A DNA stretch of 64,000 bases. It comes from Myxococcales bacterium. GTDB taxonomy: Bacteria > Myxococcota_A > UBA9042 > JABWCM01 > BTVJ01. This document shows positions 1-15,771 of this stretch, in pieces (positions within the stretch are counted from its first letter, which is position 1; each line of letters starts with the position of its first letter). A model generated the notes under the pieces. That model was not told the origin of the DNA. It searched no databases and was given only the letters and a program-made list of their open reading frames with translations. A program made the position numbers and the translations under genes. The stretch covers positions 64,001-128,000 of the forward strand of contig BTVJ01000004.1 of NCBI GenBank assembly GCA_045863395.1, given 5' to 3'.

Positions 1-97
1 CGGCGCTCTTCACGCACTCGGGCTTGCTCGCGGCCGGCTCCGGGCTCCGCTTGCATCCGACCAACGCCACCAGGACCAACCACGCTGCTCTGTTCAC
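1..97 (-). CDS. N-terminus of a putative lipoprotein (runs off the window edge)
   Basis: Manual translation from GTG at 97 gives MNRAAWLVLVALVGCKRSPEPAASKPECVKSA. It has a lipobox (LVGC) and an upstream GGAGG RBS. Confidence 0.65.
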   Translation of the reverse strand, partial: MNRAAWLVLVALVGCKRSPEPAASKPECVKSA

Positions 98-205
98 GCT
101 CTACCCTCCGTCTGGACAGCGGGAGCCTACCGCCCACGGGGGTCCGCGGCAAGCTGGCGCGCACGTCGCGGTGTGGTAGCCTTGCGCCCCACGAGGAGGC
201 GCACC

Positions 206-700
206 ATGGGCCAACGACGGCTCCCGATGATCAAGGAGGTCTCCTGGGCGGCCGTCGGCCCCCAGCTCGTGCTGCTCGCCGTGCTGGTCGCCGCCGGCCA
301 CGCGGTGATCGGCCCCCGCTTCGGCGTCACGGCCGGGGCCCTCGTCTGGCTCGCCTGGCGCATGGGCGGTCACCAGGTCGTCGCGCGCCACCACCGGGCG
401 GGCATCCGCCTTCTTCGGGCGCGCCGCCCCGAGCAGGCCATCGGCGCCTTCGAGCGGAGCATCGCCTTCTTCGAGCGTCACCCCTGGGTCGACCGCCACC
501 GGGCCCTGGTGCTGCTGTCCCCGAGCCGCATGTGCTACCGGGAGATGGCCCTGGTCAATATCGCCTTCGCGTGGGGGCAGCTCGGCGACGGGGTCCGCAT
601 GAAGCAGACCTACGAGCGGGCCCTCGCGGAGTACCCCGACAACCCCATCGCTGCTGCGGCGCTTCAGCAGATCGCCGCCATCGCGGGACGCGCCAGTTGA
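206..700 (+). CDS. Small membrane protein with C-terminal TPR-like repeats
   Basis: ATG at 206 follows a GAGGAGG RBS. Two hydrophobic helices, then TPR-like helices (AIGAFERSIAF; YERALAEYPDNPIA). Confidence 0.7.
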   Translation: MGQRRLPMIKEVSWAAVGPQLVLLAVLVAAGHAVIGPRFGVTAGALVWLAWRMGGHQVVARHHRAGIRLLRARRPEQAIGAFERSIAFFERHPWVDRHRALVLLSPSRMCYREMALVNIAFAWGQLGDGVRMKQTYERALAEYPDNPIAAAALQQIAAIAGRAS

Positions 701-854
701 CTGGGGGCCTCGAGGGGCAGAGAGGCGCTGCCTCTTGCCGGCGGCCGGCAAGCAGGGTTAGGGTAGGCGGCGGGGGCGAGAGGGGTTCGTGCTCGAGCGG
801 TCTCGACGCCAGGTCCACGCAGGAGCCCCGCGCCCCACAGGCAGGAGGTGACGC

Positions 855-1850
855 ATGACTCCCACGGTGGCCGCATCGCCGGTCGCGGCTCCCTCCGCGG
901 GGAGCGACGGCACGGGCGACCCGCCGCAACATGACGGGCCGGGATCACCCGCCGCCTGCCCGGCTCCCAGCCCGCTCAGCGAGCAGCTCGACCAGATGCG
1001 CGCACAGATGGACACCCTGACCCGCGAGCTGCGCAAGGCCCGGCGCCTGGAGGCCATCGGCCGCCTCTCGTCGGGCATCGCCCACGAGATCAACTCGCCG
1101 CTCCAGTACATCACGTCGAACCTGCACTTCGCCCGCACGTCGGTGGAGGACCTCCTCGCCCTCGTCGACACCTACCGCGACGCTGCGCGGGTCGATGGCG
1201 AGGTGCCCGAGGCGCTGCGGCAAGCGGAGGCCGAGCGGGGCCTCGACTTCCTGCTGGAGCAGCTCGGCCCGGCGATCGACCAGACCTTCGACGGGCTGGA
1301 GCGCGTCTCGAAGATCGTGCGCACCATGCGGGAGTTCGGCGTGGAGCGCACCGGCGACCGCAAGGAGCCCGCCGACCTGAACCGGGCGCTGCGGAGCGCG
1401 CTCGTCGTAGCCCACAACGAGCTGAAGTACGTTGCCACGGTCCAGACGGACCTGCAGCCCATCCCGCACGTCACCTGCTTCGAGGGAGACCTGAACCTGG
1501 TCTTCCTGAACCTGCTGACGAACGCAGCCCACGGGGTGGCCGCCGCGGTGGAGGGGACCCATGCGCAGGGCACGATCACCGTCTGCTCTCGCGACGCGGG
1601 CGACGACGTCGTGGAGATCGCGGTATCCGACACGGGGTGCGGGATCCCCCCAGACGATCTCGAGCGCCTGCTCGGGGCTCCGCCTCATGAGACCGGAGCG
1701 AGCCCCTGGGGCGGCCTCGCTGTCGCCCGCGCGGTGATCGTCGACGAGCACGCGGGCACCCTGACCATCGACAGCGAGCAGGGACGAGGCACCACCGTCA
1801 CGATCCGCCTCCCCGTCGAGCCGCCGGGGGACATCGCTGAGACGTGCTGA
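855..1850 (+). CDS. Soluble histidine kinase (NtrB-like HisKA + HATPase), no sensor domain
   Basis: H-box GIAHEINSPLQY, N-box VFLNLLTNA, G1 box DTGCGI, terminal GRGTTVTIRLP. RBS AGGAGG. Confidence 0.9.
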   Translation: MTPTVAASPVAAPSAGSDGTGDPPQHDGPGSPAACPAPSPLSEQLDQMRAQMDTLTRELRKARRLEAIGRLSSGIAHEINSPLQYITSNLHFARTSVEDLLALVDTYRDAARVDGEVPEALRQAEAERGLDFLLEQLGPAIDQTFDGLERVSKIVRTMREFGVERTGDRKEPADLNRALRSALVVAHNELKYVATVQTDLQPIPHVTCFEGDLNLVFLNLLTNAAHGVAAAVEGTHAQGTITVCSRDAGDDVVEIAVSDTGCGIPPDDLERLLGAPPHETGASPWGGLAVARAVIVDEHAGTLTIDSEQGRGTTVTIRLPVEPPGDIAETC

Positions 1851-1901
1851 ACCCGCCACGAGCCCTGCGCCGGCAGGCCCGCAGCCCGAGATCCAGGAGG
1901 A

Positions 1902-3041
1902 ATGATGACGCTCCCCCGTGTCCTGTGTGTCGATGACGAACCGAACGTGGTCGCGGGCCTCAGCCTGCACCTGCGCCGGCACTACGAGGTGCTCACGGCC
2001 ACCAGCGGGGCGCAGGGGCTGGAGCTCCTCCGGGAGCAGGGCCCCATCGCCGTCGTGCTCTCCGACATGCGCATGCCGGGCATGGACGGGGCGACCTTCC
2101 TGGGGCTCGTGCGCGAGCGCTCCCCGGCCACGGTGCGCATTCTCTTGACGGGCCACGCGGATCTGAACTCCGCCGTCGCCGCCGTCAACCGCGGGCAGAT
2201 CTTCCGGTTCCTGACCAAGCCGTGCCCACCGGACGAGCTGCTGGGCGCTTTCCGGGCCGCCGCGGAGCAGCACCGCCTCATCGAGGCGGAGCGTGTGCTG
2301 CTGGAGCAGACCCTCATGGGCAGCATCAAGGCGATGGTCGACGTGCTCGCCCTGACCAACCCAGTGGCCTTCGGCCGTGCCAGCCGAATCAAGCGCCACG
2401 CGATGCAGGTCGCCCAGAAGCTCGACGTGCCCGACCCGTGGCAGATCGAGGTGGCCGCCATGCTGTCGCAGATCGGGTGCATCACGCTGCCCCCAGACAC
2501 CTCGGAGAGGCTGTTCCACGGCCACCCGCTGGACCCCGAGGAGCAGGAGATGGTCGCCCGCGTGCCCGCGACCACCCGCCAGCTCCTGGGGAACATCCCG
2601 CGCCTGGAGCCCGTGCTCGAGATCCTGAGCGGTGAGCGGATCGCGTGGCGGAAGGTGAACCCCCAGACCGGCCGCCCGGCGCCTGTCGGCTCCCGCATCC
2701 TGCGGGTCGCCGCCGACTACGACACGCTGACGGCCCGCGGCCACACGCCGGACGTGGTGTTCGGGACGCTGCGGGCCGTGCGCGACACCTACGACCCCGC
2801 CGTGCTGGAGGCCTTCGACGCCCTCCACGAGGAGGCCGGGATCGCGAGCCGGGTGCTCGAGATCCCCATCCGCGCGGTCCAGGTGGGCATGGTCATGATC
2901 GAGGACGTGCTGATGACCAGCGGGACCGTCTTCGCCGCCCGGGGCTACGAGGCGACCGAGAGCTTCGTCATGCGCGCCGGGAACCTCCCCGACGGAGCCG
3001 TGCGGGAGCCCGTGGGGGTCCTCGTCCCTGCGCCCGCCTGA
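1902..3041 (+). CDS. Response regulator (REC) with a degenerate HD/HD-GYP-like output domain
   Basis: REC motifs LCVDDE, SDMRMPGMDG, LTG and FLTKP. The output domain has AAMLSQIG where HD-GYP proteins have LHDIG, plus the GSRILRVAADYD helix. Confidence 0.88.
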   Translation: MMTLPRVLCVDDEPNVVAGLSLHLRRHYEVLTATSGAQGLELLREQGPIAVVLSDMRMPGMDGATFLGLVRERSPATVRILLTGHADLNSAVAAVNRGQIFRFLTKPCPPDELLGAFRAAAEQHRLIEAERVLLEQTLMGSIKAMVDVLALTNPVAFGRASRIKRHAMQVAQKLDVPDPWQIEVAAMLSQIGCITLPPDTSERLFHGHPLDPEEQEMVARVPATTRQLLGNIPRLEPVLEILSGERIAWRKVNPQTGRPAPVGSRILRVAADYDTLTARGHTPDVVFGTLRAVRDTYDPAVLEAFDALHEEAGIASRVLEIPIRAVQVGMVMIEDVLMTSGTVFAARGYEATESFVMRAGNLPDGAVREPVGVLVPAPA

Positions 3042-3193
3042 GCCGCTCCCCTCTTGGTCCCCCTGGCGCCGTCACCCACCTTCTCTCGCAACGCCCTCTC
3101 CCGAAGGCCGAGTCGCGCCGGCCGCGGCGGTTCGCGGCGATGTCCCTTGTAAGTCGGAGGCGGCAGTGATACCAGCCGCCGAGGAGGTGCGCC

Positions 3194-4825
3194 ATGAGGT
3201 GGTTGGTGGCTCTGTTCCTGGTAGGGTGCGCAGGTTCCGTGGAGAAGGGGGCGCCCGCGCTGCCTGCGCTTGGGGCCAAGCAGGACGGCCCGGCGGTCCC
3301 CGTGCTCGGCACGCTGGCCTGGGGAGAGGCGATGAGCGGGACCCTCACGCCGGGGGAGTTCCAGGGGTGGCTCCTCCCGGCGCTCGCTGGCGACCTCGTG
3401 ACGGTGGAGGTGACACAGAAGGGGTCGAGCGCCGGCCTGGACGCGACCCTGTTCGTCTATGCTCCGGACGGCGGGGGCTTCGCGTCGGACCCCGCCGCCA
3501 TGGACGACGACTCCGGGTGGGGTCGCCTGCCCCGCCTGACCCACACCTTCAGCGTCGGAGGCTCGTACCTCGTGGTGGTCGGCGCCTTCGACAAAGTGGG
3601 CAAAGGCGCCTACCGCCTGCTCGCCACCTGCACCGGCGTCTGCGAGGTGGCGAGCTGCGACCCCCGCCTTCTCGCCGGCATGAAGGCGTGTGTCCAGGAT
3701 TGGCGCTACGGCGCGGATCCGGACGCGCAGCGCCCACCGACCACCGGGGAGCTGGTGGAGGGCTGCACCGACGCCGAGCCAGTGGCCCCGGTGCGTGACG
3801 CCATCTGCGCCGAGGACGACTCGCCCTTCTGCGCTCTGGACTACGAGCAGTTCGTCTACCAGGCCATCCCGCCGTGCCGCGCGCCCCTCGAGACGTGGGT
3901 GGAGGAGACGGCCTGCGCCCTCGGCTATACGTGGCAGCCCATCGCCCAGGGGGCGGCCTGGGGCATCCTGGAGCTCGGCCGCACCACGGTGACGACGGCC
4001 GAGGGGCTCAGCGATGTCGAGGCGGAGCGCATCGTGGCGGCGCTCCACGCCTCCGCCCACACGGACGTCACGACCGCCGCGGAGGCCATTCTGCGCACCG
4101 ACGACAAGGCCCTGCTGCGCCTCTCGCTCTGGGACGTCACCAACGGCAGAGCCTATGACGCCTGGACCTTCCACGCAGGTGACAACCTCTTCGGGGCCGT
4201 CTTCGGCGATGGGAGTGGGGGTCCGGTGGCCCACATCAACGACGGAGACATCGTGGAGTGTCAGGTGACACCGGGGCCGGTGCTTCACCCCTGCGCGACG
4301 GACGGAGACTGCGGCGGCCTCACCTGCATCGGCGCCAGCCCGCAGACCTTCGACGGCCGCTGTGTCCCGCCGGGAGCGGCAGGCGCAGAGACGTGCTCGG
4401 CGGAGGCGCAGTGTGCGGCGGGCTTCGTGTGCAACGGTGGAGAGGCGGGCACCTGCGCCCCCGCCTGGACCCGCGCCACCTTCCGCGACGTGGCGTGGGC
4501 GCCCATCCCGGAGGGCGTCGGCGCCCCGCTGGAGCGAACAATCCAGGCGTCGGGCCTGCTCCCGGAGGCGACGGACGCCCGCCTGCGGATCACCGTGGCC
4601 CACCCGGCGCCATCACAGCTCCGCGTGCTGCTCTTGACGCCGGCGGGAGGCGAGCACGTGGTCTACGAGGGCACGCAGCAGGGCCCGGACCTGACGCTGG
4701 ACCTGGCGGTCCCCGTTGACGGCGGCACCCCGGCCAACGGGACGTGGACCCTCCGCGTCACCGACACGCTCAAGGGGAAGGCGGGGACGCTCACCGAGTG
4801 GTCGCTGGGGTTGGGGAGCCGCTGA
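3194..4825 (+). CDS. Lipoprotein with PPC-like domain, Cys-rich segments and C-terminal proprotein-convertase P domain
   Basis: Lipobox LVGC. PPC-like LDATLFVYAP..DDDSG. P-domain ITVAHP..SQLRVLL..P...ANGTWTLRVTD...GTLTEWSL. Confidence 0.8.
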   Translation: MRWLVALFLVGCAGSVEKGAPALPALGAKQDGPAVPVLGTLAWGEAMSGTLTPGEFQGWLLPALAGDLVTVEVTQKGSSAGLDATLFVYAPDGGGFASDPAAMDDDSGWGRLPRLTHTFSVGGSYLVVVGAFDKVGKGAYRLLATCTGVCEVASCDPRLLAGMKACVQDWRYGADPDAQRPPTTGELVEGCTDAEPVAPVRDAICAEDDSPFCALDYEQFVYQAIPPCRAPLETWVEETACALGYTWQPIAQGAAWGILELGRTTVTTAEGLSDVEAERIVAALHASAHTDVTTAAEAILRTDDKALLRLSLWDVTNGRAYDAWTFHAGDNLFGAVFGDGSGGPVAHINDGDIVECQVTPGPVLHPCATDGDCGGLTCIGASPQTFDGRCVPPGAAGAETCSAEAQCAAGFVCNGGEAGTCAPAWTRATFRDVAWAPIPEGVGAPLERTIQASGLLPEATDARLRITVAHPAPSQLRVLLLTPAGGEHVVYEGTQQGPDLTLDLAVPVDGGTPANGTWTLRVTDTLKGKAGTLTEWSLGLGSR

Positions 4826-5090
4826 GGCGCACCGCGGCCCTGTCGCGACGGGCGTCGTGAACGGTGTACACCGCACTGCGCCAGATCCCCTGAGACCCGC
4901 TCGGTCAGAACGCCTCCACTCGCCAGCACAGGTACGCGAGGAGCGCATCGCTCACGAAGCCGATCACTTCATGCCAGAGGAAAGTCTTGCTCGGATTGTG
5001 CTTGCGGTCTCGCACCCCCGTGAGCTACCCTCGTCCAGTCCGTGACCCGGAGAGGTCGACTCGGCATACTCTCGAGGGGAGTTTGTCGCG

Positions 5091-5339
5091 ATGGGAATTC
5101 GACGATGCAGCTTCTGCAAGAAGCCCCGCGGCGCAGAGCTCGCCAAGATCTGCACATCCTGCGCCCAGGGCCGCACAGCAGACTCCTGGTGTGACTTCTG
5201 TAACAAGACGACCAACGGCGCGCCGGCCTGGATATGCTCCACGTGTGCCAAGGGACGCACCGGCGACAACTGGTGCGACTTCTGCAACAAGACCACGAAT
5301 ACGGTCGTTGCTCGTATTTGCGCTCGCTGCGCCGCATGA
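5091..5339 (+). CDS. 82-aa Cys-rich zinc-finger protein with six CxxC motifs in three 28-aa repeats (PHF5/Rds3-like spacing)
   Basis: GAGGGGAG RBS. CxxC at residues 6, 21, 34, 49, 62 and 77. The internal repeat WCDFCNKTTN occurs twice. Confidence 0.75.
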   Translation: MGIRRCSFCKKPRGAELAKICTSCAQGRTADSWCDFCNKTTNGAPAWICSTCAKGRTGDNWCDFCNKTTNTVVARICARCAA

Positions 5340-5365
5340 CCGCGAGTCGAGAGAGGAGATGATCG

Positions 5366-8299
5366 ATGTTGTCTGTCGACCAGCTTCGGCGACTGGAGTC
5401 CACCCGGGCCCTCCTGCCCAATTCGCTCGCAACCAGCCTGACCGGCGCACTCCTCGAGCGGGATCCTCGCTCGAAACTACGTGAAATTCTGCGGTTCTGC
5501 GAGTCATTGGCACGCTACCTGTGCGACCTGCTCAACTCGGCGTACACGATGCGCAAGGACACGGACCCGTCCATCGAAAGGGAGCTGCGCGCCAAGTCGA
5601 AGAAGGAGAAGACAGCGGGTCTGTCCTTCGGGGACCTCGTTGCATCACTGGCGGTGTTCAGAGGACGAATGACGGAGGAGATGGCGCTTCCTCAGATCAA
5701 GGTGATCCTCTCGGAACAGCTTCCTGGCGAGTGTCTCACGGCCATCAGGACCATCGAGATCATCATGGAAGCGACGGGCGATTTCGAGGTCCCCCCACAC
5801 AAGGTAGCCGCCTATGTCAAGAGACGGCTGGCCGAACGTGGGGCCGTCGGAAAGAAGAACATCACGGACCTCCTGTGGATGCTCGCAAGAGTCCGCAATG
5901 CCTTTCACCACCCGTCGGACGCGGGGGCCCGCGCTGCGGACTCGAGAGTCGACGCTCGTCAGGAGGCCGAGGCGCCCTCACCGGCGACCGGGAAACAGTG
6001 GTGGTCGGAGGCCATTGAGTTCTACGTCGCGCTAGTGGAGACGCTGCACCCGGCACTCGTGGATCTGCTCCTCTGGTCGCCCCTCGTCGCGCTGGTAGAG
6101 CAGTACGAGCTCGTCGAGACCTTGTCGCCATCCGTGTCGGTGGACGACGGGTTTCTCTCGACCGTAAGACGTAACAGCCCAAGTGCCGAGCTGCTGCTCG
6201 TGCCAAGCCAGATCCGAACGGACTCGCCGTTGGAATCCGGACAGCTCTGCGTCGCTGCTCGGACGGCCGATCCATCTCGACTCGAGCTTTGTGTCCGCGG
6301 ACTTCGGTATCCTGCGAGCCGGCTGGCGCGCACGGAACACCTCGCCATGTATCGCAAGGCATTCGTACGAGCGATCCTGGGCGACGCGGTCGTCGATGCC
6401 GCCGATGAGTCAGCACTGGAGGAGATTCGGGCTCAGGGCGACCTCACAGACGGTGAGGTAGCGGAGTGTCGTTCATCGGTTCTCCAACGCTGGCTCGCAG
6501 CATGTCCGACCTCGGAGCCGATCCAGAGCCTGGGCACAGACATCACACCGAGACCGAGCGACGCTCTGGAGCATTGGCTCTCAAGGGATACACCGGCAAA
6601 GTCCGAGAGTCCGGCAGCCCCTGGTGACGTAGTTGCGCAGGCAGCATCTCTCATGGGCCACGTCTGTGGTCTGGTATTGCGGTCCCTTCAGGACAACGGC
6701 GCCATGGGGCTCGAGGCTCTCGTTCGGAGCACGTCTGTCGAGGCCCTCGCGTTGGCCCGTGCTCTGCAGTGGCTCGTGGACCGTAAGCGGGTGACGAGCG
6801 CAGGCAGCACGCAACAGGGAAATGCGGCACGCACATACCAGCTCTTGGACCAGGCACACATCGACACATTCCGGTCCGTCCTCGTCGAGGTTGGACACGA
6901 GATTGACTCAGGGAAGGTGATCAGCGGCCAGGTCTGGCGTCTCATCAAGTTGACGGACTCACTCCTGAGAGATCTCGGACACACCGAGGATTTCGCCGAG
7001 CGATGGCGAGAGCTGGAGGAGCGCGCACTGTCTCAAACGGATCTGGAGGTTTCTGACACTACCGATGTAGACGAAGAGGCTGATCGCCTGGACCTCATGA
7101 TCGAGGGTACCGACGTCAGCGCAAAGCGCTTGACACATCTGGTGCGGCGGGCTTGGGAGCTCGTGTGCAACGACGACAGGATGGTAAGACAGGTGACATC
7201 CCCAGGCAGCGCCATACCGTTCAAGGTCGGTCGCAGCCGCTATTTCGCTCACAGTGCACCAGAGCACTCCAACGGCACCGCGTTTGCTTTGCCCGTCGAG
7301 TGTCTCTGCGGCGACACGGCGGTCTACTTCGAGTGCAACTGGAGTCGTCGCGAAGGTGTCTTCCACCTCATCGGATTTCTGGGGAGGTGCGGATTCCGCG
7401 CCGAGTCCGCCTCCGTTGGAGAGCAGGTCGTGCAGGTTGAACAGGCCGCGCCGGAGCCAGGCGACGAGTCCACGCGGTCACGGCCCGGCGGTGTGCAGCA
7501 AGCCCTTGGCGACGGCGATGGTCGGGGAGTTGCGATTCTGCTGACGGACGGTGAGGAGCTCGATATTCGCGGCCGCAACGTTCCGCGCTTTCTGGGCTCG
7601 CTTCTGCGCTGGCTCGTGGACAATGATCTGATTCATGAGCAGGTGCATGGTGAGCCACTGCTTCCGTTTCAAAGCGGCAGAGTGCGAAACTTCGTCGCGC
7701 TTGCGCCGTTTCACCAGGACGAGACGCCATTCCAACGCCCGGTGGAGTACCAGGGACTCTACATGGAGGCGTCTCAATCATGGGAATCGGCGCTGGAGTA
7801 CTCGAAGCGCCTGCTCGACAGACTCAGGCTCGACTGTCGTGTCCTGGTGGATGATTCGCGACTGCCGCTCATGGTCCGTGTGCGCGATGGCGCGCCCATC
7901 GAAGGGGAGAACGTTCGCGATTTGTTCGTTGCGGCATGCCAGTATCTGGTCGAGTCCCAGAATGCATCCCGAGTACCCGTTCCACTTGCGAGCGGCACGA
8001 AGCGGTACATCATGTCCGAAACTCCGGTTCATCCAGCCGGCAACGCATTCAGCAGTCCGGTCCAGATTGATCTCAACGGGCGTCTCGTATACTGCGAAGC
8101 CAACGTAAGCAGAGCGAGCGCGCTGTCCTATGTCGTCAAGCTTTTGGAGTCCACTGGCACCATCATCGTCGATGCCCAGGGCCACAATGCGCTACAGGAA
8201 GCACTGGGCGCTGCGTCCTCGGGCGAGGGGCCCGACGTCCATAGCAGTGCATTGGACAGTCTGGGAGACGCAATCAGCGAGGCTGGAGCGACTCTCTGA
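5366..8299 (+). CDS. 977-aa multidomain protein: HEPN-like N-terminus, TerB-like segment, wHTH, three tandem SeqA-C-like repeats; putative defence protein
   Basis: RBS GAGAGGAG. RNAFHH motif at 5894-5911. Three C-terminal repeats of pattern P(F/L)xxGxxRx(F/I)xxxxPxHxxxxxFxxPV...YxExxxSxxx(A/G). Codon usage is visibly less GC3-rich than the flanking genes. Confidence 0.8.
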   Translation: MLSVDQLRRLESTRALLPNSLATSLTGALLERDPRSKLREILRFCESLARYLCDLLNSAYTMRKDTDPSIERELRAKSKKEKTAGLSFGDLVASLAVFRGRMTEEMALPQIKVILSEQLPGECLTAIRTIEIIMEATGDFEVPPHKVAAYVKRRLAERGAVGKKNITDLLWMLARVRNAFHHPSDAGARAADSRVDARQEAEAPSPATGKQWWSEAIEFYVALVETLHPALVDLLLWSPLVALVEQYELVETLSPSVSVDDGFLSTVRRNSPSAELLLVPSQIRTDSPLESGQLCVAARTADPSRLELCVRGLRYPASRLARTEHLAMYRKAFVRAILGDAVVDAADESALEEIRAQGDLTDGEVAECRSSVLQRWLAACPTSEPIQSLGTDITPRPSDALEHWLSRDTPAKSESPAAPGDVVAQAASLMGHVCGLVLRSLQDNGAMGLEALVRSTSVEALALARALQWLVDRKRVTSAGSTQQGNAARTYQLLDQAHIDTFRSVLVEVGHEIDSGKVISGQVWRLIKLTDSLLRDLGHTEDFAERWRELEERALSQTDLEVSDTTDVDEEADRLDLMIEGTDVSAKRLTHLVRRAWELVCNDDRMVRQVTSPGSAIPFKVGRSRYFAHSAPEHSNGTAFALPVECLCGDTAVYFECNWSRREGVFHLIGFLGRCGFRAESASVGEQVVQVEQAAPEPGDESTRSRPGGVQQALGDGDGRGVAILLTDGEELDIRGRNVPRFLGSLLRWLVDNDLIHEQVHGEPLLPFQSGRVRNFVALAPFHQDETPFQRPVEYQGLYMEASQSWESALEYSKRLLDRLRLDCRVLVDDSRLPLMVRVRDGAPIEGENVRDLFVAACQYLVESQNASRVPVPLASGTKRYIMSETPVHPAGNAFSSPVQIDLNGRLVYCEANVSRASALSYVVKLLESTGTIIVDAQGHNALQEALGAASSGEGPDVHSSALDSLGDAISEAGATL

Positions 8300-8458
8300 G
8301 GCGAGCGGGCTCGGACCCGTGCGAGGGTCTCTGTGTTGTGACGTCTCGTCAGGCGAGGAGCGCGCAATCGGTGGCGTAGACGCGCTGTGGCGTTGGGTGC
8401 CCCCTGACCCGCCGCGGTCCTCGTGGGCCGGGATCACGACGCCTTGGCATGCCACGGA

Positions 8459-10141
8459 TCAGAGCGTCTCCTCCCGCCCGAACAGCGGCGCCAGGAGCAC
8501 CACGCCGGCGCAGCCGACCACGTTGTACCAGAGGAAGCCGACGTCGCTCAGGAAGAACATCGCCAGCACGAGGGCCTCGGAGAGGACCGCCGCCCAGAAG
8601 ACGCCGGCGGCGCGGACCCGCTTGAGGAAGAAGGCGGCGAGGAAGATGCCGAGGATGGTGCCGTAGAAGAGGGAGCCGAGGATGTTGACGGCCTGGATGA
8701 GGTTGTCGATGAGCGAGGCGAAGGTCGCAAACGCGATGGCGAGGAGCCCCCACCCCACGATGAAGACCTTGGAGACGCGCAGCGTGTGGGCCTCGTCGGC
8801 GTCTGGCCGGAAGGAGCGCTTGTAGAAGTCGATGGCGGTGGTGGTGCCCAGCGCCGACAGCTCGCTCGCCGTCGACGACATGGCCGCCGACAGGATCACC
8901 GCGACCAGCAGCCCCACCACCCCGATGGGGAGGAACTTCATCACGAAGCTCAGGAAGACGTAGTCCGTGTCCTTGGTCTCGGCCCCGGGCACCGCGCGGG
9001 CGATGATCGCCCTCGCCTTGGCGCGCAGCTCCACGTCCTGCGCGGAGAGCTCCCGCATGGACGCCTTCGCCGTCGCCGCCGCCTCCTCGTCACCCGCCCT
9101 GCGCGCGCCGAGCCAGGTGTCCACCGCCGCGCGCTTGACCTGGAAGATGCGCGCGTGGGCGGCCTCCACCTCCGCCAGCTCCGGCCCATGAGAGGTCGCC
9201 GCCGCCTGGGCCCGCGCGGCCTCGTTGAAGAACACCGGCGGCTCCACGAACTGGTAGAACACGAACACCATGACCCCGATGAACAGGATGAGGAACTGCA
9301 TGGGGATCTTGAGCAGCCCGTTGAACAGGAGCCCGAGGCGCGCCTGGGCGATGGAGCGCCCGGACAGGTAGCGCTGCACCTGGCTCTGGTCGGTCCCGAA
9401 GTAGGCGAGCGCGAGGAAGAGCCCCCCTGTGATCCCCGACCAGAAGGTGTAGCGGCTGTCGAGGTCCAGGCTGAAGTCGATGGCGTTCATGCGGCCGAAG
9501 GCCCCCGCCACCTGGACCGCCTCGCCGAAGGAGACGTGCTCCGGCAGGTGGAGCACCACCATGACCAGCGCCGCCACCATGCCGCCGAGCATCACCACCA
9601 TCTGGTGCTTCTGGGTCTGGCTCACCGCCTTGGTGCCGCCGGTCACCGTGTAGACGACGACCACGAGGCCGATGGCCACGTTGGTCACGTCCAGGGGCCA
9701 GCCGAGGATGGTGGAGAGGATGATCGCCGGCGCGTAGATGGTGATTCCCGCGGCCAGGCCTCGTTGAATCAGGAAGAGAAACGCAGCGAGCTGGCGGGTG
9801 CGCTTGTCGAAGCGGCTCTCCAGGAACTCGTAGGCCGTGTAGACCCGCAGCCGGAAGTAGCGGGGCACCACCACCGCGGACAGGATCACCATGGCGATGG
9901 GCAGCCCGAGGTAGAACTGGACGAAGCGCATGCCGTCGTCGTAGCCCTGCCCCGGGGTGGACAGGAAGGTGATGGCGCTCGCCTGGGTCGCCATGACGCT
10001 CAGGCCGACGGTGTACCAGGGCAGCTCGTTGTCGCCGCGCAGGTAGCCCTGCACCGTCGCCACACGGCGCGTCTTCCAGGCCCCGTAGGCGACGATGCCG
10101 AAGACCGTGCCCAGCATCACCGCCCAGTCGAGGGCGCTCAC
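8459..10141 (-). CDS. Sodium:solute symporter (SSS family)
   Basis: Motifs SVMATQASAITF, YEFLESRF, GTDQSQVQRYL and AAMSS. About 13 TM helices. Confidence 0.95.
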   Translation of the reverse strand: MSALDWAVMLGTVFGIVAYGAWKTRRVATVQGYLRGDNELPWYTVGLSVMATQASAITFLSTPGQGYDDGMRFVQFYLGLPIAMVILSAVVVPRYFRLRVYTAYEFLESRFDKRTRQLAAFLFLIQRGLAAGITIYAPAIILSTILGWPLDVTNVAIGLVVVVYTVTGGTKAVSQTQKHQMVVMLGGMVAALVMVVLHLPEHVSFGEAVQVAGAFGRMNAIDFSLDLDSRYTFWSGITGGLFLALAYFGTDQSQVQRYLSGRSIAQARLGLLFNGLLKIPMQFLILFIGVMVFVFYQFVEPPVFFNEAARAQAAATSHGPELAEVEAAHARIFQVKRAAVDTWLGARRAGDEEAAATAKASMRELSAQDVELRAKARAIIARAVPGAETKDTDYVFLSFVMKFLPIGVVGLLVAVILSAAMSSTASELSALGTTTAIDFYKRSFRPDADEAHTLRVSKVFIVGWGLLAIAFATFASLIDNLIQAVNILGSLFYGTILGIFLAAFFLKRVRAAGVFWAAVLSEALVLAMFFLSDVGFLWYNVVGCAGVVLLAPLFGREETL

Positions 10142-10281: not shown

Positions 10282-12724
10282 GGTCGATCAGGTTGGCCAT
10301 GAGCCGGAAGGCGCCCGGCACCCCCGCGGGGAGCTGGCGGAAGAAGGACAGCCCGGTGTAGACGATGCGGCCCTTGCCATGGGGCATGACCAGCAGGGAG
10401 CCCAGCTGAGGGTCCTCCCCCGGGTCCGCCATGGAGAGGACGGGGGTCCAGGCCGGGTCCCACGAGTCGGCGAAGTAGAGGCCGCGCTCCTGCACCCAGC
10501 CATCGAAGTCGGCGGCGGTGATCGCGTTCGGGCGCGTCAGGATGGGGTGATCACCCAGGAAGGTCACCGCCGCTCCCTCGTCCGTGACGCGGCCGCGCCC
10601 GACGGAGATTGGTTTGGGCCCGATGGGGGCCAGCAGATCACTCAGGTGGTTTCGCGTCGCGTACTGGACTACCAGCGTGCCGCCGCGGCTCGCCCACTCG
10701 TGGAGGCGCGGGGCCCACACCTTGATCCGCGGCGTGCTGCTGAAGGCGCGGACCCCCACCACGATGCTGCGCCACTGGCTCAGGTCGCCGGCCGTGAGCT
10801 GCGCGTCCGTCAGCTCGTCCACGGCGTAGCCCGCGTCCCGCAGCGCGTCGGCCACCTTGTCGCCGGGGCCGGGCACGTAGCCGACGCGGTCCGTGACGCG
10901 TGCCAGCGGAACCGAGACGAGCGGCACCGACGCCTCCCGGTGGATGGTCTGGATGGGGATGTGCGGGTAGTCGATGCGCGCCACCGAGACGGAGACCGGT
11001 CCGTCACCGGCATCGACGACGGCGCGAGCGCGGCCGCTCCCCTCTCCCCGCAGCGTGAACGTGACGGCCGCCTCGTCCCCCACCGCGTCCAGTGAGACGG
11101 CGTGGGACCGCGGCTCCACCGAGAACCCGGCGGGCAGCTCCAGGCGCACGGTGGCGCGCAGGCCGGGCACCGACGCCCGCACCAGGAGCCGGACGAGGCG
11201 GGGCGCGCCACTCGGCACCACCAGGGCCTCCCGGTCGAAGGCGACCGTCGCGGGCGGCGCCACCTCCAAGGCTCGGGTCCGCTCCCCCTCCACCGGATCC
11301 ACCCACGAGTACGCCAGGTCCCGGGTGAAGTGCAGGGTCTGGTCGCCCGCCCGCACGGCGAACACCACCGGCAGGGCGGGCGGCCCCACCGGCAGGCCGA
11401 GGAGCGCCGGAGGGACGCGGAACAGCGCGCCGTCCGGGGGCTCCCGCAGCCAGTAGGGCGCCGTGTAGGGGGCGCCCGGGGGAACGACGGTCTCCTCCAC
11501 CAGGGTCATGGGGAGGTTGTCCGGGAGGGGACGGTCCACCTCCACCACGCGCCCATCTGGCAGCATCGCGGAGAGCAGACGCAGCTCGACGGGCGAGCGG
11601 TTGGTGGCCTCGATGCGAACCGTGAGCGGGGCCCCCGGGACGCCCTCCACCCGGTCGGCCAGCGCCGCCAGGTAGAGGCCGCTCAGGTGGGCGATCAGCG
11701 AATCCAGGCGCGCGAGGGTCCGCTCCTTCCACGGGCCGTCGGGGAGCAGAGTGGCAGCCGCGCGGGCCGCCAGGAGCGCCGGCACCGCCCGGTGGGGCGC
11801 CCGAGGGTCGAAGGCGGCGCGAGCGTCCTCGACGGCCTTGCCCACCGCCGCCCCCCCGGCCAGCCGCCCCCACGTCAGGTCCAGCCCCTCCAGGATGTCT
11901 CCAGTCGGGCGCGTCCCCGCCAGCGGCTCGAAGTACTCGATGATCGCCCCCCGCTGCTGCGCCGCCCCGAAGCCCTGGCTCTTGTGCATGCTGCGGCTCC
12001 GCCCGGCCAGCTCCCCCCACGAGGTCCCGAGCAGGGGGCTGTAGCCGCCCACGTCGACGGAGAGCCACCGGGACTTGTCCGTCTCGGGCGTGATGGTCCA
12101 GTGGGAGACGTTGTACAGGAGCCGGTCCGCCTGCCACGGGGCCACCTGCGAAAGCTGCTCGGGGAAGCGCGCGGGATCGGCCGCCGCCGTGAACGCCTCC
12201 GCGCCCAGGATCGCCGACGCCGTGTGGTGCCCGTGGTTCGGTGACCCACCCGTCGCGAACCGCACGATGATGGCGTCGGGCTGCACGAGGCGCACGGCCC
12301 ACACCACGTCGGCGAGGACCTCCTCGTGCCCCCAGAGCGCCAGGGTCTCCTCCGCGGTCTTCGAGTAGCCGAAGTCCACGGCGCGGGTGAAGAGCTGCTC
12401 GGCGCCGTCCAGGCGGCGCGCGGCCATCAGCTCCTGCGTGCGGATCAGCCCGAACAGCGAGTCCTGCTCCTCGCCGATGAGGTTCTGCCCGCCATCGCCC
12501 CGGGTCAGGGACAGGTAGACGGTCCGCACCTTGCGCTCGTTGGCCAGGTAGGAGAGGAGCCGCGTGTTCTCGTCGTCCGGGTGGGCAGCGATGTAGAGCA
12601 CCGTGCCGACGGTGCCGAGCTTGTCCAGCTCGTGCTGGAGCCGCGCCGCGTCGGGCTGCGCCTGCGCGGCGAGGGCGACGAGGAGGGTTGCGCCGGTGAG
12701 GGCGCCTCGGAGTGCGATCATCAT
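10271..12724 (-). CDS. Secreted PIG-L/LmbE family deacetylase with Ig-like and class I GATase-like C-terminal domains
   Basis: AHPDDE, LTRGDGGQN and HGHH motifs. Signal peptide ends AAQA. C-terminal WVQERGLYF. Start inferred at ATG 12724 (track ORF extends to 12802). Confidence 0.9.
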   Translation of the reverse strand: MMIALRGALTGATLLVALAAQAQPDAARLQHELDKLGTVGTVLYIAAHPDDENTRLLSYLANERKVRTVYLSLTRGDGGQNLIGEEQDSLFGLIRTQELMAARRLDGAEQLFTRAVDFGYSKTAEETLALWGHEEVLADVVWAVRLVQPDAIIVRFATGGSPNHGHHTASAILGAEAFTAAADPARFPEQLSQVAPWQADRLLYNVSHWTITPETDKSRWLSVDVGGYSPLLGTSWGELAGRSRSMHKSQGFGAAQQRGAIIEYFEPLAGTRPTGDILEGLDLTWGRLAGGAAVGKAVEDARAAFDPRAPHRAVPALLAARAAATLLPDGPWKERTLARLDSLIAHLSGLYLAALADRVEGVPGAPLTVRIEATNRSPVELRLLSAMLPDGRVVEVDRPLPDNLPMTLVEETVVPPGAPYTAPYWLREPPDGALFRVPPALLGLPVGPPALPVVFAVRAGDQTLHFTRDLAYSWVDPVEGERTRALEVAPPATVAFDREALVVPSGAPRLVRLLVRASVPGLRATVRLELPAGFSVEPRSHAVSLDAVGDEAAVTFTLRGEGSGRARAVVDAGDGPVSVSVARIDYPHIPIQTIHREASVPLVSVPLARVTDRVGYVPGPGDKVADALRDAGYAVDELTDAQLTAGDLSQWRSIVVGVRAFSSTPRIKVWAPRLHEWASRGGTLVVQYATRNHLSDLLAPIGPKPISVGRGRVTDEGAAVTFLGDHPILTRPNAITAADFDGWVQERGLYFADSWDPAWTPVLSMADPGEDPQLGSLLVMPHGKGRIVYTGLSFFRQLPAGVPGAFRLMANLIDHAN

Positions 12725-12911: not shown

Positions 12912-13361
12912 ATGAAGCGAACAATCGCGCTCGTCAGCCTGGCCCTCATGCTGACTGCGTGCGACGGGACCGAGGCGAGCGGCCCAGGTGACGCGCTGGG
13001 GGCCGATACCACGGCGGGTGACGCCGACGGGGCCGGCGCGGACACCCCCGACGGGACGCCGCACGATGCCACAGGCGCCATGGCCTGCGGCCCGACCACC
13101 ACCTGTGTACCTCCCCAGGCCTGCGAGGCGCTGGGGCAGGGCACCTGCGGCGGTCCCGCCCCCGGCCCGGACGGCAAGTGCGCACCGGGCTGCTCCCCCA
13201 TGGAGTGCGGCGGGGGCACGCATTGCCTGTGCGGCACCTACAAGTGCATCGACCTGCCCCCCGGGTGCACCGGCTGCGACTGCACGTGGACGGACTGGCA
13301 CCAGTCCTGTATCTGCGACGACTCGACCGGCCTGGTCGTGCTCCAGTGCCCGGGCGCGTGA
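12912..13361 (+). CDS. Cys-rich lipoprotein
   Basis: Lipobox LTAC, Asp/Gly linker and many Cys residues. RBS GGAG. Confidence 0.75.
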   Translation: MKRTIALVSLALMLTACDGTEASGPGDALGADTTAGDADGAGADTPDGTPHDATGAMACGPTTTCVPPQACEALGQGTCGGPAPGPDGKCAPGCSPMECGGGTHCLCGTYKCIDLPPGCTGCDCTWTDWHQSCICDDSTGLVVLQCPGA

Positions 13362-13458: not shown

Positions 13459-13571
13459 TGCCCGATCTGGCGTGCACCCTACGTGCCCCGGGGCACTCGC
13501 GCTTCTGGTTTTCATCAGATAACTGTATTGCAGTGCCCGATCTGGCGTGCACCCTACGTGCCCCGGGGCAC
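13459..13571. repeat. Perfect 38-bp direct repeat x2 separated by a 37-bp unique spacer (mini-CRISPR-like geometry)
   Basis: TGCCCGATCTGGCGTGCACCCTACGTGCCCCGGGGCAC at 13459-13496 and 13534-13571. It contains the 14-bp palindrome GTGCCCCGGGGCAC. Spacer TCGCGCTTCTGGTTTTCATCAGATAACTGTATTGCAG is 16/37 GC. Confidence 0.9.
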
Positions 13572-13578
13572 CCCGGGC

Positions 13579-14448
13579 TCATGGCACGAGCCACGCTTCG
13601 AGCTGCTCCCAGGTCCACCCGGTCCCCTGCACGAACATGGCCCGCGCCATGCCCGCATGGACGAAGCGCTCGTCGCCGAGATCGAAGAGATCCTCCAGGA
13701 TCGGCAGGAGGCGCCCCCGCAGCTCGGGGTCCGCCAGGCCCAGCCCCAGCACCTCGTTGAGCTGTGCCAGCTTGCGCTCCACCCGGGCTGCCTTCTCCAG
13801 GCGGGAGGCCACGACGCTCGGCCGGTCCAGGCCGCAGACGCGAATGGTCTCCGCCCCATGCTCGCTGCCCGCCAGCGGGCGGACCGCGCCGCCTCCAAGA
13901 AACTCGAGGTGCTGCGCCGGATCGTGCCGCCCGAACGGGTCGAGGAGCAGCGGGTCCTCCACGGCCTCGTCGCCGGGTGCCGGCCGGGCGGCGCGCCCAC
14001 CCGCCACCGGGAAGAGGGCATTCTTCCACGACTGGTTGCACAGACCGCACGACACCAGGTAGTTGTCCCAGGAGTAGGCGAGCCACCAGTATCCGCTGTC
14101 CCAGGTCCCGACCTTGGGCGGCTTGCCGAACGACCGCCCCGCCGTGTTGTTGAGGCTCTGACGCTCTCTCCCCGGCTTGAGCAGCGTGAAGATGGCGGTC
14201 TTCGGGCGGTAGTGCTCCACGTCCCCGTGGTCCGTCAGGAGCCGCTCGCAGTAGCCGCACTTGCGGTGCTGCCGCTCGGCGAAGTGCTCCTTGACCCCTT
14301 CCCCCCACGCCGCGTTGGCCTTCAGGAAGTCGGCCACGCCCTTCCAGTCCCCGACGGTCCCCAGCGCCTCCGCCGCCTCCCGCAGCGTCTTCACCCGCAG
14401 CTCGAAGTCCGCCCTCCCCCCGGTGGGTCGCGCGCTGAACCGCAGCAT
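13579..14448 (-). CDS. HNH endonuclease, Septu PtuB / retron-effector HNH-like
   Basis: KCGYCE...DVEHYRPK...YWWLAYSWDNYLVSCGLCN...KNALFP...LLLDP. Starts 2 bp after the ATPase stop. Confidence 0.85.
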   Translation of the reverse strand: MLRFSARPTGGRADFELRVKTLREAAEALGTVGDWKGVADFLKANAAWGEGVKEHFAERQHRKCGYCERLLTDHGDVEHYRPKTAIFTLLKPGRERQSLNNTAGRSFGKPPKVGTWDSGYWWLAYSWDNYLVSCGLCNQSWKNALFPVAGGRAARPAPGDEAVEDPLLLDPFGRHDPAQHLEFLGGGAVRPLAGSEHGAETIRVCGLDRPSVVASRLEKAARVERKLAQLNEVLGLGLADPELRGRLLPILEDLFDLGDERFVHAGMARAMFVQGTGWTWEQLEAWLVP

Positions 14449-14450
14449 GG

Positions 14451-15734
14451 TCAGGGCTCTCCGAGCAGGGAGCGCATGCGCCGCTTCAGGTCCGCACGGT
14501 CCTCCTTGGCGAGGGGCAGCTCGCTGCTGGTCTCCGCCACGAGGCGCAGGGCCAGCCTCTCCTCCGCCGTGTCACCGAAGCTCCCCAGGCGCTGGCGCAG
14601 CTCGACCTCCACGTCCCGGAGCTCAGCGCGGGTCGCGCCGCCCGCGGCCGCCTTCTGGTACTCCTCCAGACGGCGCACGGTGTCGGCGTCGAGCGTCGAC
14701 GCGAGGCCGAACCAGGGTCCGGTCAGGACCGCGTCGGCCCGGGAGCCAGGCGGAACGTCCTGCTGGCGCGCATGGATGCCGTCCGACTCCCGCGTCAGCA
14801 CATGGATCTCCCGAGGGCGCGCCCCGAGCAGGGTGAGCGGGTTGTGGGTGGTCACGACGAAGGAGAGACACGGAAAGGCCGCGCGCAGATCCTCGATGAC
14901 GCGGACCTGCCACCGGGGGTGCAGATGGAGGTCCAGCTCGTCCACCAGGACGAGCCCGGTCATCTGCTCGCGGAAGTCCCGGTCCAGGTTCACGGCCGAC
15001 TGAGTGGCTTGCGTCCTGGAGCGTGACGGCCCCCGCCTCGCGTGGGCCCAGCGCGCGATGAGGTCGCAGGTCCACCCGATGGTGGTGGCAAAGCCGTCGC
15101 TGAGGCCGTCGAACGTGGTGCGCCCGACGGCCGGCCCCTCGACGTACACGGCGTCCGACTCGGGCTCGATGCGGTCCACCCCCGGCAGGAGTCCGACCAG
15201 GGTGGCGCACACCGACTCGAAGAAGCCCTCGTCCCCCCCGCCCTTGCTTCGCAGGGCACCAAACGCGAGGTTCCGGAGCCATGTCTCGGCGTGAATCAGC
15301 CCCGGCGGCTGGTTGAACAGAGTCCCCACGGCCCCGAGAGGGTGCTCCAGGTCCACGCTGCGGCTCGGCCCCCCGAGGGCGCTCCCCCGTGCGGCCCCGT
15401 AGGCGAAGACGAGGGGAGTGAAGCCGAAGGTGCGGGTGGCGGCGCCCAACTCCAGCTCCAGATCGCCGGCCGAGGTCTGAAGTGCGACCCTCCCCGGTGG
15501 AGCCCCGAGCCGCTGGAGCCGCCCCTCCGGGTAGCGCGTCAGGTCGCTGAGCGGACTCAGCGCCACGGCCAGCGCCTTCAGGATGGTCGACTTGCCCACC
15601 CCGTTGTCGCCGAGCAGCACCGTCCACTGCCCCCGGCTCCGGGGCCGGGAGGCAAAGCGCAGGTCGAGCTGGTCGAAGCAGCGGACATTGTCGAGGTGCA
15701 GGTGCTTGAGAACCACGGGCGGTGATGCTTCCAT
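14451..15734 (-). CDS. ABC-type (AAA_21-like) ATPase, Septu PtuA-like
   Basis: Walker A GDNGVGKS, signature LSDG, Walker B/D-loop LVLVDELDLHLHP, H-switch VTTHNP. Start inferred at ATG 15734. Confidence 0.88.
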   Translation of the reverse strand: MEASPPVVLKHLHLDNVRCFDQLDLRFASRPRSRGQWTVLLGDNGVGKSTILKALAVALSPLSDLTRYPEGRLQRLGAPPGRVALQTSAGDLELELGAATRTFGFTPLVFAYGAARGSALGGPSRSVDLEHPLGAVGTLFNQPPGLIHAETWLRNLAFGALRSKGGGDEGFFESVCATLVGLLPGVDRIEPESDAVYVEGPAVGRTTFDGLSDGFATTIGWTCDLIARWAHARRGPSRSRTQATQSAVNLDRDFREQMTGLVLVDELDLHLHPRWQVRVIEDLRAAFPCLSFVVTTHNPLTLLGARPREIHVLTRESDGIHARQQDVPPGSRADAVLTGPWFGLASTLDADTVRRLEEYQKAAAGGATRAELRDVEVELRQRLGSFGDTAEERLALRLVAETSSELPLAKEDRADLKRRMRSLLGEP

Positions 15735-15742
15735 GGAGCGGC

Positions 15743-15771
15743 AGTATAGCGGGCTTGGCGGCACGGGTCAC
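15743..15771 (-). promoter_or_regulatory. Putative sigma70 promoter of the ATPase-HNH operon
   Basis: Minus strand GTGACC-N17-TATACT. The -10 box lies 8 nt upstream of ATG 15734 and there is no SD sequence. Confidence 0.55.

Follow-up and report, generated by a model that had tools for sequence, protein, structure and literature searches.

A HEPN protein with three SeqA-fold repeats, encoded on a low-GC islet of a Myxococcales genome, is a candidate defence protein of new architecture

What is the function of a pair of genes that lies at positions 5091–8299 of a 64,000-nucleotide stretch of the Myxococcales contig BTVJ01000004.1 (the whole of which is called the window here), and whose larger product is matched at E ≤ 1 by no Pfam, PADLOC or NCBIfam model? 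A preliminary description had taken the pair for an undescribed two-gene defence system, in which an RNase of the HEPN type is joined to DNA-binding modules and assisted by a small zinc protein. The computational analysis reported here identifies the large gene product as a candidate defence protein of new architecture, which is real, well conserved and undescribed in the literature searched, and which would be expected to protect against phage. As described, the genes are co-oriented on the + strand, 26 bp apart, and each has its own ribosome-binding site, that of the large gene (AGGAG) lying 7 nt ahead of its ATG.

5074–5081, + strand: Shine-Dalgarno-like site of the small gene (GAGGGGAG), 9 nt ahead of the ATG, as read from the sequence
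5091–5339, + strand: small gene, 82 residues, six CxxC motifs (open reading frame (ORF) call)
5366–8299, + strand: large gene, 977 residues, with HEPN, OB-fold, helical, winged helix-turn-helix (wHTH) and three SeqA-fold segments (ORF call)
5387–6100, + strand: HEPN domain, residues 8–245, with E46 at 5501–5503 and R177-N178-H182 at 5894–5911
6101–6313, + strand: OB fold, residues 246–316, nearest to IF1, eIF1A and CspA; missed in the preliminary description
6317–6520, + strand: three-helix bundle, residues 318–385 (helices 322–340, 345–357 and 362–379), tentatively TerB-like
6650–6853, + strand: wHTH, residues 429–496, from a profile match
7085–7411, + strand: repeat 1, residues 574–682, SeqA C-terminal fold by homology to the modelled repeat 3
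7541–7843, + strand: repeat 2, residues 726–826, fold by homology to repeat 3, without the Asn mostly kept in repeats 1 and 3
7868–8161, + strand: repeat 3, residues 835–932, SeqA C-terminal fold by model, in a slot that is swapped in some homologs

A word-index homolog search returned the large protein itself and nothing else, an Atlas search was uninformative for it, and a single-sequence PDB search and a viral fold library gave nothing usable; an exhaustive phmmer search recovered 135 relatives at E ≤ 0.001, 50 of them at E ≤ 1e-10. Thirty full-length relatives align at 19–31% identity (for the family the overall figure is 22–32%), and the full order HEPN, OB fold, bundle, wHTH, helical region and repeats 1, 2 and 3 is found in 33 sequences (query included) by a scan with hidden Markov models cut from the family's own alignment, which is circular for the domain names but not for their order. 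Of 401 genomes sampled from the phylum, 4 were found to have a full-length gene (about 1%; two candidates were scored per genome, and misses are possible), and all five of the named genomes that contain a near-full-length match are Myxococcota. The layout is shown to be fixed across a divergent and patchily distributed family that travels as cargo.

The motifs named in the preliminary description, LSFGDL (5621–5638) and RNAFHH (5894–5911, containing R177 and H182), are both present. Among 56 N-terminal-domain sequences, including one identical pair and one fragment that ends ahead of the RNxxxH site, R177, N178 and H182 are invariant in all 55 that cover the site, with an R-to-H spacing of 4 in 41 and of 5 in 14 (R-N-x-x-x(x)-H); position 46 is E or D in 51 of the 56, and the basic residue at +4 is R or K in only 19. 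The HEPN signature given in PMC3710099 consists of Rx4-6H with a polar residue behind the R, preceded by an acidic residue (Ex3[KR]), and the large protein fits it with the invariant R177-N178-H182 and the E/D at position 46. A model of residues 1–385 (predicted local distance difference test score, pLDDT, 92.6) is helical over residues 4–246, and its N-terminal part matches 4txa, 5hy3, 1wwp, 8xdj and 5fsh at Z 4.5–6.7 (1wwp: Z 5.7, root-mean-square deviation (rmsd) 2.9, 108 aligned; 5hy3: Z 5.7; 8xdj: Z 5.6). Seven of the listed matches reach this domain, and five of these are of HEPN type: two Roquin structures (Z 6.7 and 6.2) and LsoA (Z 5.7), which we take to contain HEPN domains, 1wwp and a HEPN toxin (Z 5.6); Csm6 matches at Z 4.5. 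Pfam HEPN models gave no match, the best value being E 0.14 in one of 43 members. By every sequence test run, the large protein is a HEPN protein.

Between this domain and the repeats, the OB segment superposes on IF1 (3i4o: Z 4.0, rmsd 2.1, 59 aligned) and on CspA (rmsd 2.1, 60 aligned), with Foldseek probabilities of 0.95–0.98 at E values that are not significant. The next segment had been described as TerB-like, from a string located at 6371–6430; the bundle does match the tellurite resistance protein 2ou3 (Z 6.5, rmsd 3.1, 64 aligned), but this TerB-family structure comes 10th in the ranking, tied with or below helical bundles that are unrelated and reach Z 7.6, so that TerB identity is not established, and no Pfam TerB match was found among the families listed. 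The proposed wHTH fared better: a family profile matches HTH regulators in the PDB (best E 0.0015), and homolog P0008 matches MarR (E 0.0016).

The three C-terminal repeats recognized at the outset share 29–35% identity with one another (blastp E 1e-6 to 7e-9; for none of the three pairs was the score equalled in 1000 shuffles), and the likeness to SeqA that had been claimed for them appears at the level of structure. In a comparison of the repeat 3 model (pLDDT 95.8) with 48,161 chains, two SeqA structures rank top with moderate scores (3sk7: Z 6.6, rmsd 3.1, 94 aligned; 3fmt: Z 6.5), followed by SLED at Z 5.5 and then by values of 4.5 or less. Residues R880, H889, F895 and E911 are near-invariant in the repeats; N913 is kept in 19 of 31 first and 22 of 27 third repeats, and is outside the four commonest residues at that position in the second. 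Within the HEPN family, the slots are old and distinct: for 84 of 89 repeats, the most similar repeat occupies the same slot in a different protein.

The last slot is exchangeable. In five full-length homologs (P0041, P0052, P0058, P0060 and that of locus L027; E 1e-10 to 1e-35), and also in one fragment, repeat 3 is replaced by the C-terminal domain of PDC-S11; the N-terminal domain of PDC-S02 takes its place in one full-length homolog and one fragment, and in one further homolog is added behind three repeats. PDB and NCBIfam searches gave the swapped-in domains no name; that of PDC-S02 we take to be EVE-like. PDC-S11, or Madara, restricts T4 with glucosyl-hmC and spares unmodified T4, according to a preprint (10.64898/2026.09.05.749240). 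Exchange with a Madara-type domain is the best, if indirect, argument that slot 3 reads modified DNA. The repeat also occurs outside the family: among the shorter matches scanned, where it often has no partner with a name, fusions join it to PD-(D/E)XK_4 in eight proteins, to ADP-ribosylglycohydrolase in five (one with Sir2), to HsdR_N in four and to TIR in two, and once each to NucS, Mrr_N, GmrSD_C, DUF4357 and a RecD-like helicase. It further ends an McrB protein, which offers a simple system for probing repeat specificity:

L031:5919–9757: McrB ending in a SeqA-fold repeat, adjoining McrC

Four proteins of about 175 residues (P0094, P0127, P0131 and P0136) consist of a short N-terminal domain and one repeat, with a match to NF047386 below cut-off in two of them; they resemble the two-part layout of SeqA.

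On balance, we read the large gene as encoding a one-chain anti-phage sensor-effector, an RNase gated by an array of DNA readers. Its HEPN domain is very probably an active RNase; a role of the gene in defence is likely, as is, with similar assurance, DNA binding by the repeats. The sensed feature is probably the modification state of DNA; that modification is also what triggers the enzyme is a tentative proposal. In such a mechanism, the wHTH and the three repeats would bind DNA, each slot with its own preference, and the repeats would most likely read base-modification state, in the manner of SeqA and of the readers of type IV restriction. Loading of wHTH and repeats on DNA with a foreign or unbalanced modification pattern would cluster or dimerize the HEPN domains and complete a composite active site, to which the IF1-like OB fold might present RNA, probably tRNA or ribosome-bound RNA, so that translation would stop and infection would abort. 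More doubtful is the extension of this model to the whole family as modification-gated RNases, an RNA-output counterpart of type IV restriction defined by a SeqA-fold array, a swappable last slot and a translation-targeting HEPN domain, which the array would switch on upon sensing the epigenetic state of incoming DNA. To our knowledge, the known type IV restriction enzymes cut DNA; if the model is true, a single gene would convert a mark on DNA into the cutting of RNA and so connect restriction with abortive infection, and the repeat would be a widespread, unmodelled family of modified-DNA readers common to McrB, HsdR, NucS, TIR and Sir2 proteins. Although Pfam, PADLOC and NCBIfam have no model for the repeat, it is part of many restriction and NAD-targeting enzymes, all of which its ligand would serve to annotate; that ligand would moreover show the SeqA fold at work in immunity and could yield new modified-DNA readers, with the natural slot swaps of the family as ready-made specificity tests.

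Genomic context was available for 13 HEPN loci, namely the window, L025–L027, L032–L036, L038 (found via its zinc-finger gene), L064, L069 and L070, six of them cut by a contig end near the gene; L071, a protein of 1450 residues with a distant HEPN match, was excluded from locus counts. Some loci have defence-type contexts, such as L033, where the HEPN homolog lies beside a type I restriction–modification (RM) system, a KAP NTPase and an integrase, but there is no defence-island enrichment, as several loci (L032, L034, L035 and L036) have no recognizable defence neighbours. This weighs against the sensor-effector reading, as do several other points. Phage and plasmid collections yielded no homolog, and three of the five sibling islets described below have no PADLOC match. 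SeqA (PF03925) is invisible by sequence in the query, in 42 repeat-bearing members (among the 25 of 26 families listed, E ≤ 1) and in PDB sequences, and a SeqA-like fold need not mean methyl reading, because SLED scores Z 5.5 on the same model. Two non-HEPN helical proteins match the N-terminal part at Z 6.0 and 5.6; every structural Z is below 8, a range that the comparison tool calls common; and Foldseek gave no E ≤ 0.001 for either model (residues 1–385; repeat 3). Finally, in the preprint (10.64898/2026.09.05.749240), it is by the authors' supposition that the EVE-like C-terminal domain of Madara is its sensor.

PrrC, RloC, LsoA/RnlA, HEC-08 (DUF3644) and Csm6 share with the large protein the Rx4-6H motif, the polar residue after the R, the upstream acidic residue and the helical fold, and the HEPN His is reportedly required for defence by HEC-08. 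Unlike these RNases, the large protein has no ABC ATPase, CARF domain or cognate antitoxin, and has an OB fold, a wHTH and three SeqA-fold repeats; no ATPase family match was found in the query or in full-length homologs, whereas PrrC and RloC have an ABC ATPase fused to HEPN. The comparison nevertheless frames the alternative that survives best, although we consider it unlikely: a defence RNase whose repeats serve as bait, or bind DNA but do not read its modification, so that the protein is a guard of the PrrC/RloC type, set off by free DNA ends, by replicating phage DNA or by displacement through a phage DNA mimic or anti-restriction protein. PrrC and RloC are HEPN enzymes (PMC3710099) that RM inhibition or DNA breaks activate (PMC12707154), and such a guard would suit the SLED match, the repeats 2 that mostly are without the Asn of repeats 1 and 3, and the type I RM system adjoining the gene in L033. 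An adjacent RM system is, however, found in only 1 of the 13 loci, and the domains swapped into the slot are those of modification-dependent systems, while on McrB, NucS and GmrSD-type proteins the repeat occupies a reader-like position.

The SeqA C-terminal domain (3sk7, 3fmt and 1iu3) shares the fold of repeat 3 over 94–97 residues and binds hemimethylated GATC, according to PMC4738411 and PMC12707154; the repeat, by comparison, is only 9–14% identical, occurs as a tandem triplet in one chain and is fused to a predicted RNase. Madara/PDC-S11, McrBC and GmrSD resemble the family in pairing a nuclease with an exchangeable reader, some homologs carrying the Madara C-terminal domain and McrB the repeat; here, unlike in Madara and the type IV enzymes, the effector is a predicted HEPN RNase rather than a DNase and several readers share one chain. 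The NucS-like PD-(D/E)XK nuclease and EVE-like C-terminal domain of Madara are not found in the window protein, which has no PADLOC match. CoCoNuTs are type IV-related systems with predicted RNA targeting and with HEPN, OB and wHTH domains (PMC11090510), from which the islet differs in having no McrB GTPase, McrC, CnuH helicase or coiled-coil partner and in comprising two genes only; the terms 'SeqA' and 'TerB' are absent from the main text of that paper (PMC11090510). PrrC/RloC, Madara, CoCoNuT and SeqA itself are each excluded by these features as the identity of the large protein. The preliminary description had recognized no named system, and none was found in PADLOC, Pfam or NCBIfam; nor did the literature searched yield an account of such an architecture, although a large prediction table may list it.

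A rather improbable alternative takes the working unit to be a three-gene signalling system of zinc finger, DHH-CorA and HEPN proteins, in which a nucleotide signal, or else the cyclic phosphates that HEPN produces, would be processed by DHH, with CorA acting at the membrane; the window would then hold a crippled remnant, or borrow the DHH-CorA paralog that the source genome has on contig C32, beside a kinase and an NYN nuclease. A DHH-family gene adjoins the HEPN gene in 6 of 13 loci (DHH-CorA in five, DHH-kinase in L026), with overlapping or near-touching DHH-CorA and HEPN genes in L064, L069 and L070. The gene order is Zn–DHH-CorA–HEPN in L027 and HEPN–DHH-CorA–Zn in L038, where a duplicated gene 3' end encloses exactly these three genes. 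Of the relatives whose context is known, the two closest to the window protein in a quick tree each adjoin a DHH-family gene, and type III CRISPR loci contain DHH-CorA fusions, according to 10.1101/270033. The related cassettes resemble this accessory in having a DHH-like and CorA-like partner gene; they differ from it in that DHH-CorA is absent from the window islet and no cas gene was recognized beside it in the loci read. Against an obligate trio, both window genes are intact; four of the six DHH loci belong to a single family, even if the quick tree places their HEPN proteins on different branches; and most DHH-CorA genes in the phylum sample have no HEPN or zinc-finger gene in flanks of about 1.5 kb. 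In L032 and L034, no partner of either kind accompanies the HEPN gene in the 9 kb or more viewed on each side, which indicates that the large gene can stand alone:

L032:9971–12631: stand-alone HEPN homolog directly after ileS, no duplicated 3' end detected
L034:9953–12649: stand-alone HEPN homolog directly after icd, no duplicated 3' end detected

The islet is probably a reduced form of the Zn/DHH-CorA/HEPN cassette that, most likely, lost its middle gene, the DHH-family gene being missing from it. Two of the loci have features of their own: L070 encodes a divergent member with no repeat detected, and in L026 (3867–6119) a DHH-like domain is fused to a protein kinase, convergent with the HEPN homolog. 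On C32, the kinase/DHH-CorA/NYN nuclease run (L045:6267–11485) has host-like G+C content at third codon positions (GC3), and no cas gene was recognized in the 18 kb read.

The small protein is probably a triple C4 zinc finger, consisting of three units of about 28 residues with 12 cysteines that all 12 aligned sequences retain. In comparison with each of 8 homologs, its ORF shows a coding signature (conservation of 0.62–0.80 at codon positions 1 and 2, and of 0.43–0.57 at position 3), and the family is real and rare, with a gene in 4 of 401 genomes that adjoins a HEPN gene in 2 of the 4. Its weak, Cys-driven Pfam matches are below cut-off (PHF5, E 0.008; zf-C4_ClpX, E 0.039), PDB matches have E 0.3–0.9, and neither a PHF5-like nor a ClpX-like label was accepted on such sub-threshold scores; the PHF5/Rds3 match spans the full protein and follows its Cys spacing. 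Nine distinct loci were found, three with HEPN, three with DHH-CorA (two common to both), two with a KAP NTPase and three with none, the last mostly on short contigs. The preliminary description had made this protein the cofactor of a two-gene system. The two genes do recur together, though in only 3 of the 13 HEPN loci and 3 of the 9 zinc-finger loci, and these counts, with the copies beside KAP NTPases, weaken the proposal and lead us to reject an obligate two-gene system; the protein is best read as an optional accessory of several conflict systems rather than an obligate subunit. No fused form was found, which is a weak negative.

The same counts bear on a toxin–antitoxin or addiction pair that would stabilize the islet, with the zinc protein as antitoxin and the DNA-binding domains for autoregulation. 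The position of the small gene directly upstream of the HEPN gene, the HEPN toxins among the structural matches and the age and retention of the islet would fit, but the zinc-finger gene is unseen in 10 of 13 HEPN loci (several of them contig-cut), 6 of 9 zinc-finger loci show no HEPN gene, gene order varies, and four DNA-binding domains with exchanged slots exceed the needs of autoregulation, making such a pair very improbable. Least credible is a non-defence nucleoid or cell-cycle regulator coupling DNA methylation state to RNA turnover, for although SeqA is a replication regulator and some copies follow housekeeping genes (ileS in L032, icd in L034), the gene has foreign composition and variable insertion sites, is found in about 1% of genomes, and its repeat is fused to restriction enzymes.

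How the gene pair came to its present site can be read from its borders, which support a horizontally acquired, 3.5-kb low-GC islet:

4905–4982, − strand: left boundary, decayed duplicate of the terminal 78 nt of the SSF transporter gene, matching 8459–8536 at 56 of 78 nt, stop codon in register
8459–8536, − strand: right boundary, intact 3' end of the sodium:solute symporter gene (gene 8459–10141; Pfam SSF)

GC content is 0.61–0.64 across 5001–8500 versus 0.70–0.74 across 1–5000, and GC3 is 0.75 and 0.71 in the two islet genes versus 0.90–0.98 in all nine neighbouring genes measured, in line with the A/T-richer codon endings noted earlier for the large gene. Together with this foreign composition, the duplicated SSF 3' end that frames the genes bears out the description of the insertion as an atypical island. 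The left copy is 72% identical over 78 nt and is the top non-self blastn match of 4826–5090 in the 8.8-Mb genome (E 2.8e-4); its score was reached by 0 of 3000 random genome windows, and the C-terminal peptide of the SSF protein matches 11 orthologs. A comparable arrangement was detected in one of nine homolog loci tested: in the metagenome locus L038, an 81% copy of an ABC-permease 3' end starts 2 bp past the last cargo gene and encloses the related cassette. L038:10254–10358 and 11223–11272 are two successive duplicates of one permease 3' end, which suggests tandem insertions at one site.

A survey of 1961 ORFs on the 40 largest contigs of the source genome revealed 19 with a downstream copy of their own 3' end, 10 of which end in an in-register stop; four of these 10 are paralog pairs and six are cargo islets of 2.5–7.3 kb. 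The HEPN islet has by far the most decayed boundary of the six (72% versus 93–100%), the other five (L072–L076) being:

C1:307263–314544: sibling islet with in-register 3'-end duplicate
C23:26589–32772: sibling islet with in-register 3'-end duplicate
C27:83491–87667: sibling islet with in-register 3'-end duplicate
C38:40064–44253: sibling islet with in-register 3'-end duplicate
C39:28045–30516: sibling islet with in-register 3'-end duplicate

One of them carries a Ppl-like gene (E 3e-124) and another a KAP NTPase. No integrase was recognized in these five, and a search for tyrosine integrases, which did not extend to serine recombinases, found none on the islet's contig C4. We infer that the islet entered long ago as cargo at the 3' end of a gene and that it lacks its own integrase. 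A search for sigma-70 promoters gave none. The islet is covered in part by contigs from two RNA-library and two DNA sequencing runs, with one contig of each RNA run bridging the two genes, although assembled contigs of this kind cannot show transcription; the joint expected of an empty site is absent from the contigs of these runs.

Elsewhere in the window, ARAGORN calls a 93-nt tRNA-Thr inside an ORF (13013–13105, − strand), which is possibly spurious. At 13579–15764 (− strand), 5 kb from the islet, lies a Septu-like PtuA/PtuB pair (PADLOC E 1e-45 to 1e-57) with host-like GC3, and just past ptuB are two identical 38-nt repeats (13459–13496 and 13534–13571), 75 nt apart from start to start, which occur nowhere else in the genome.

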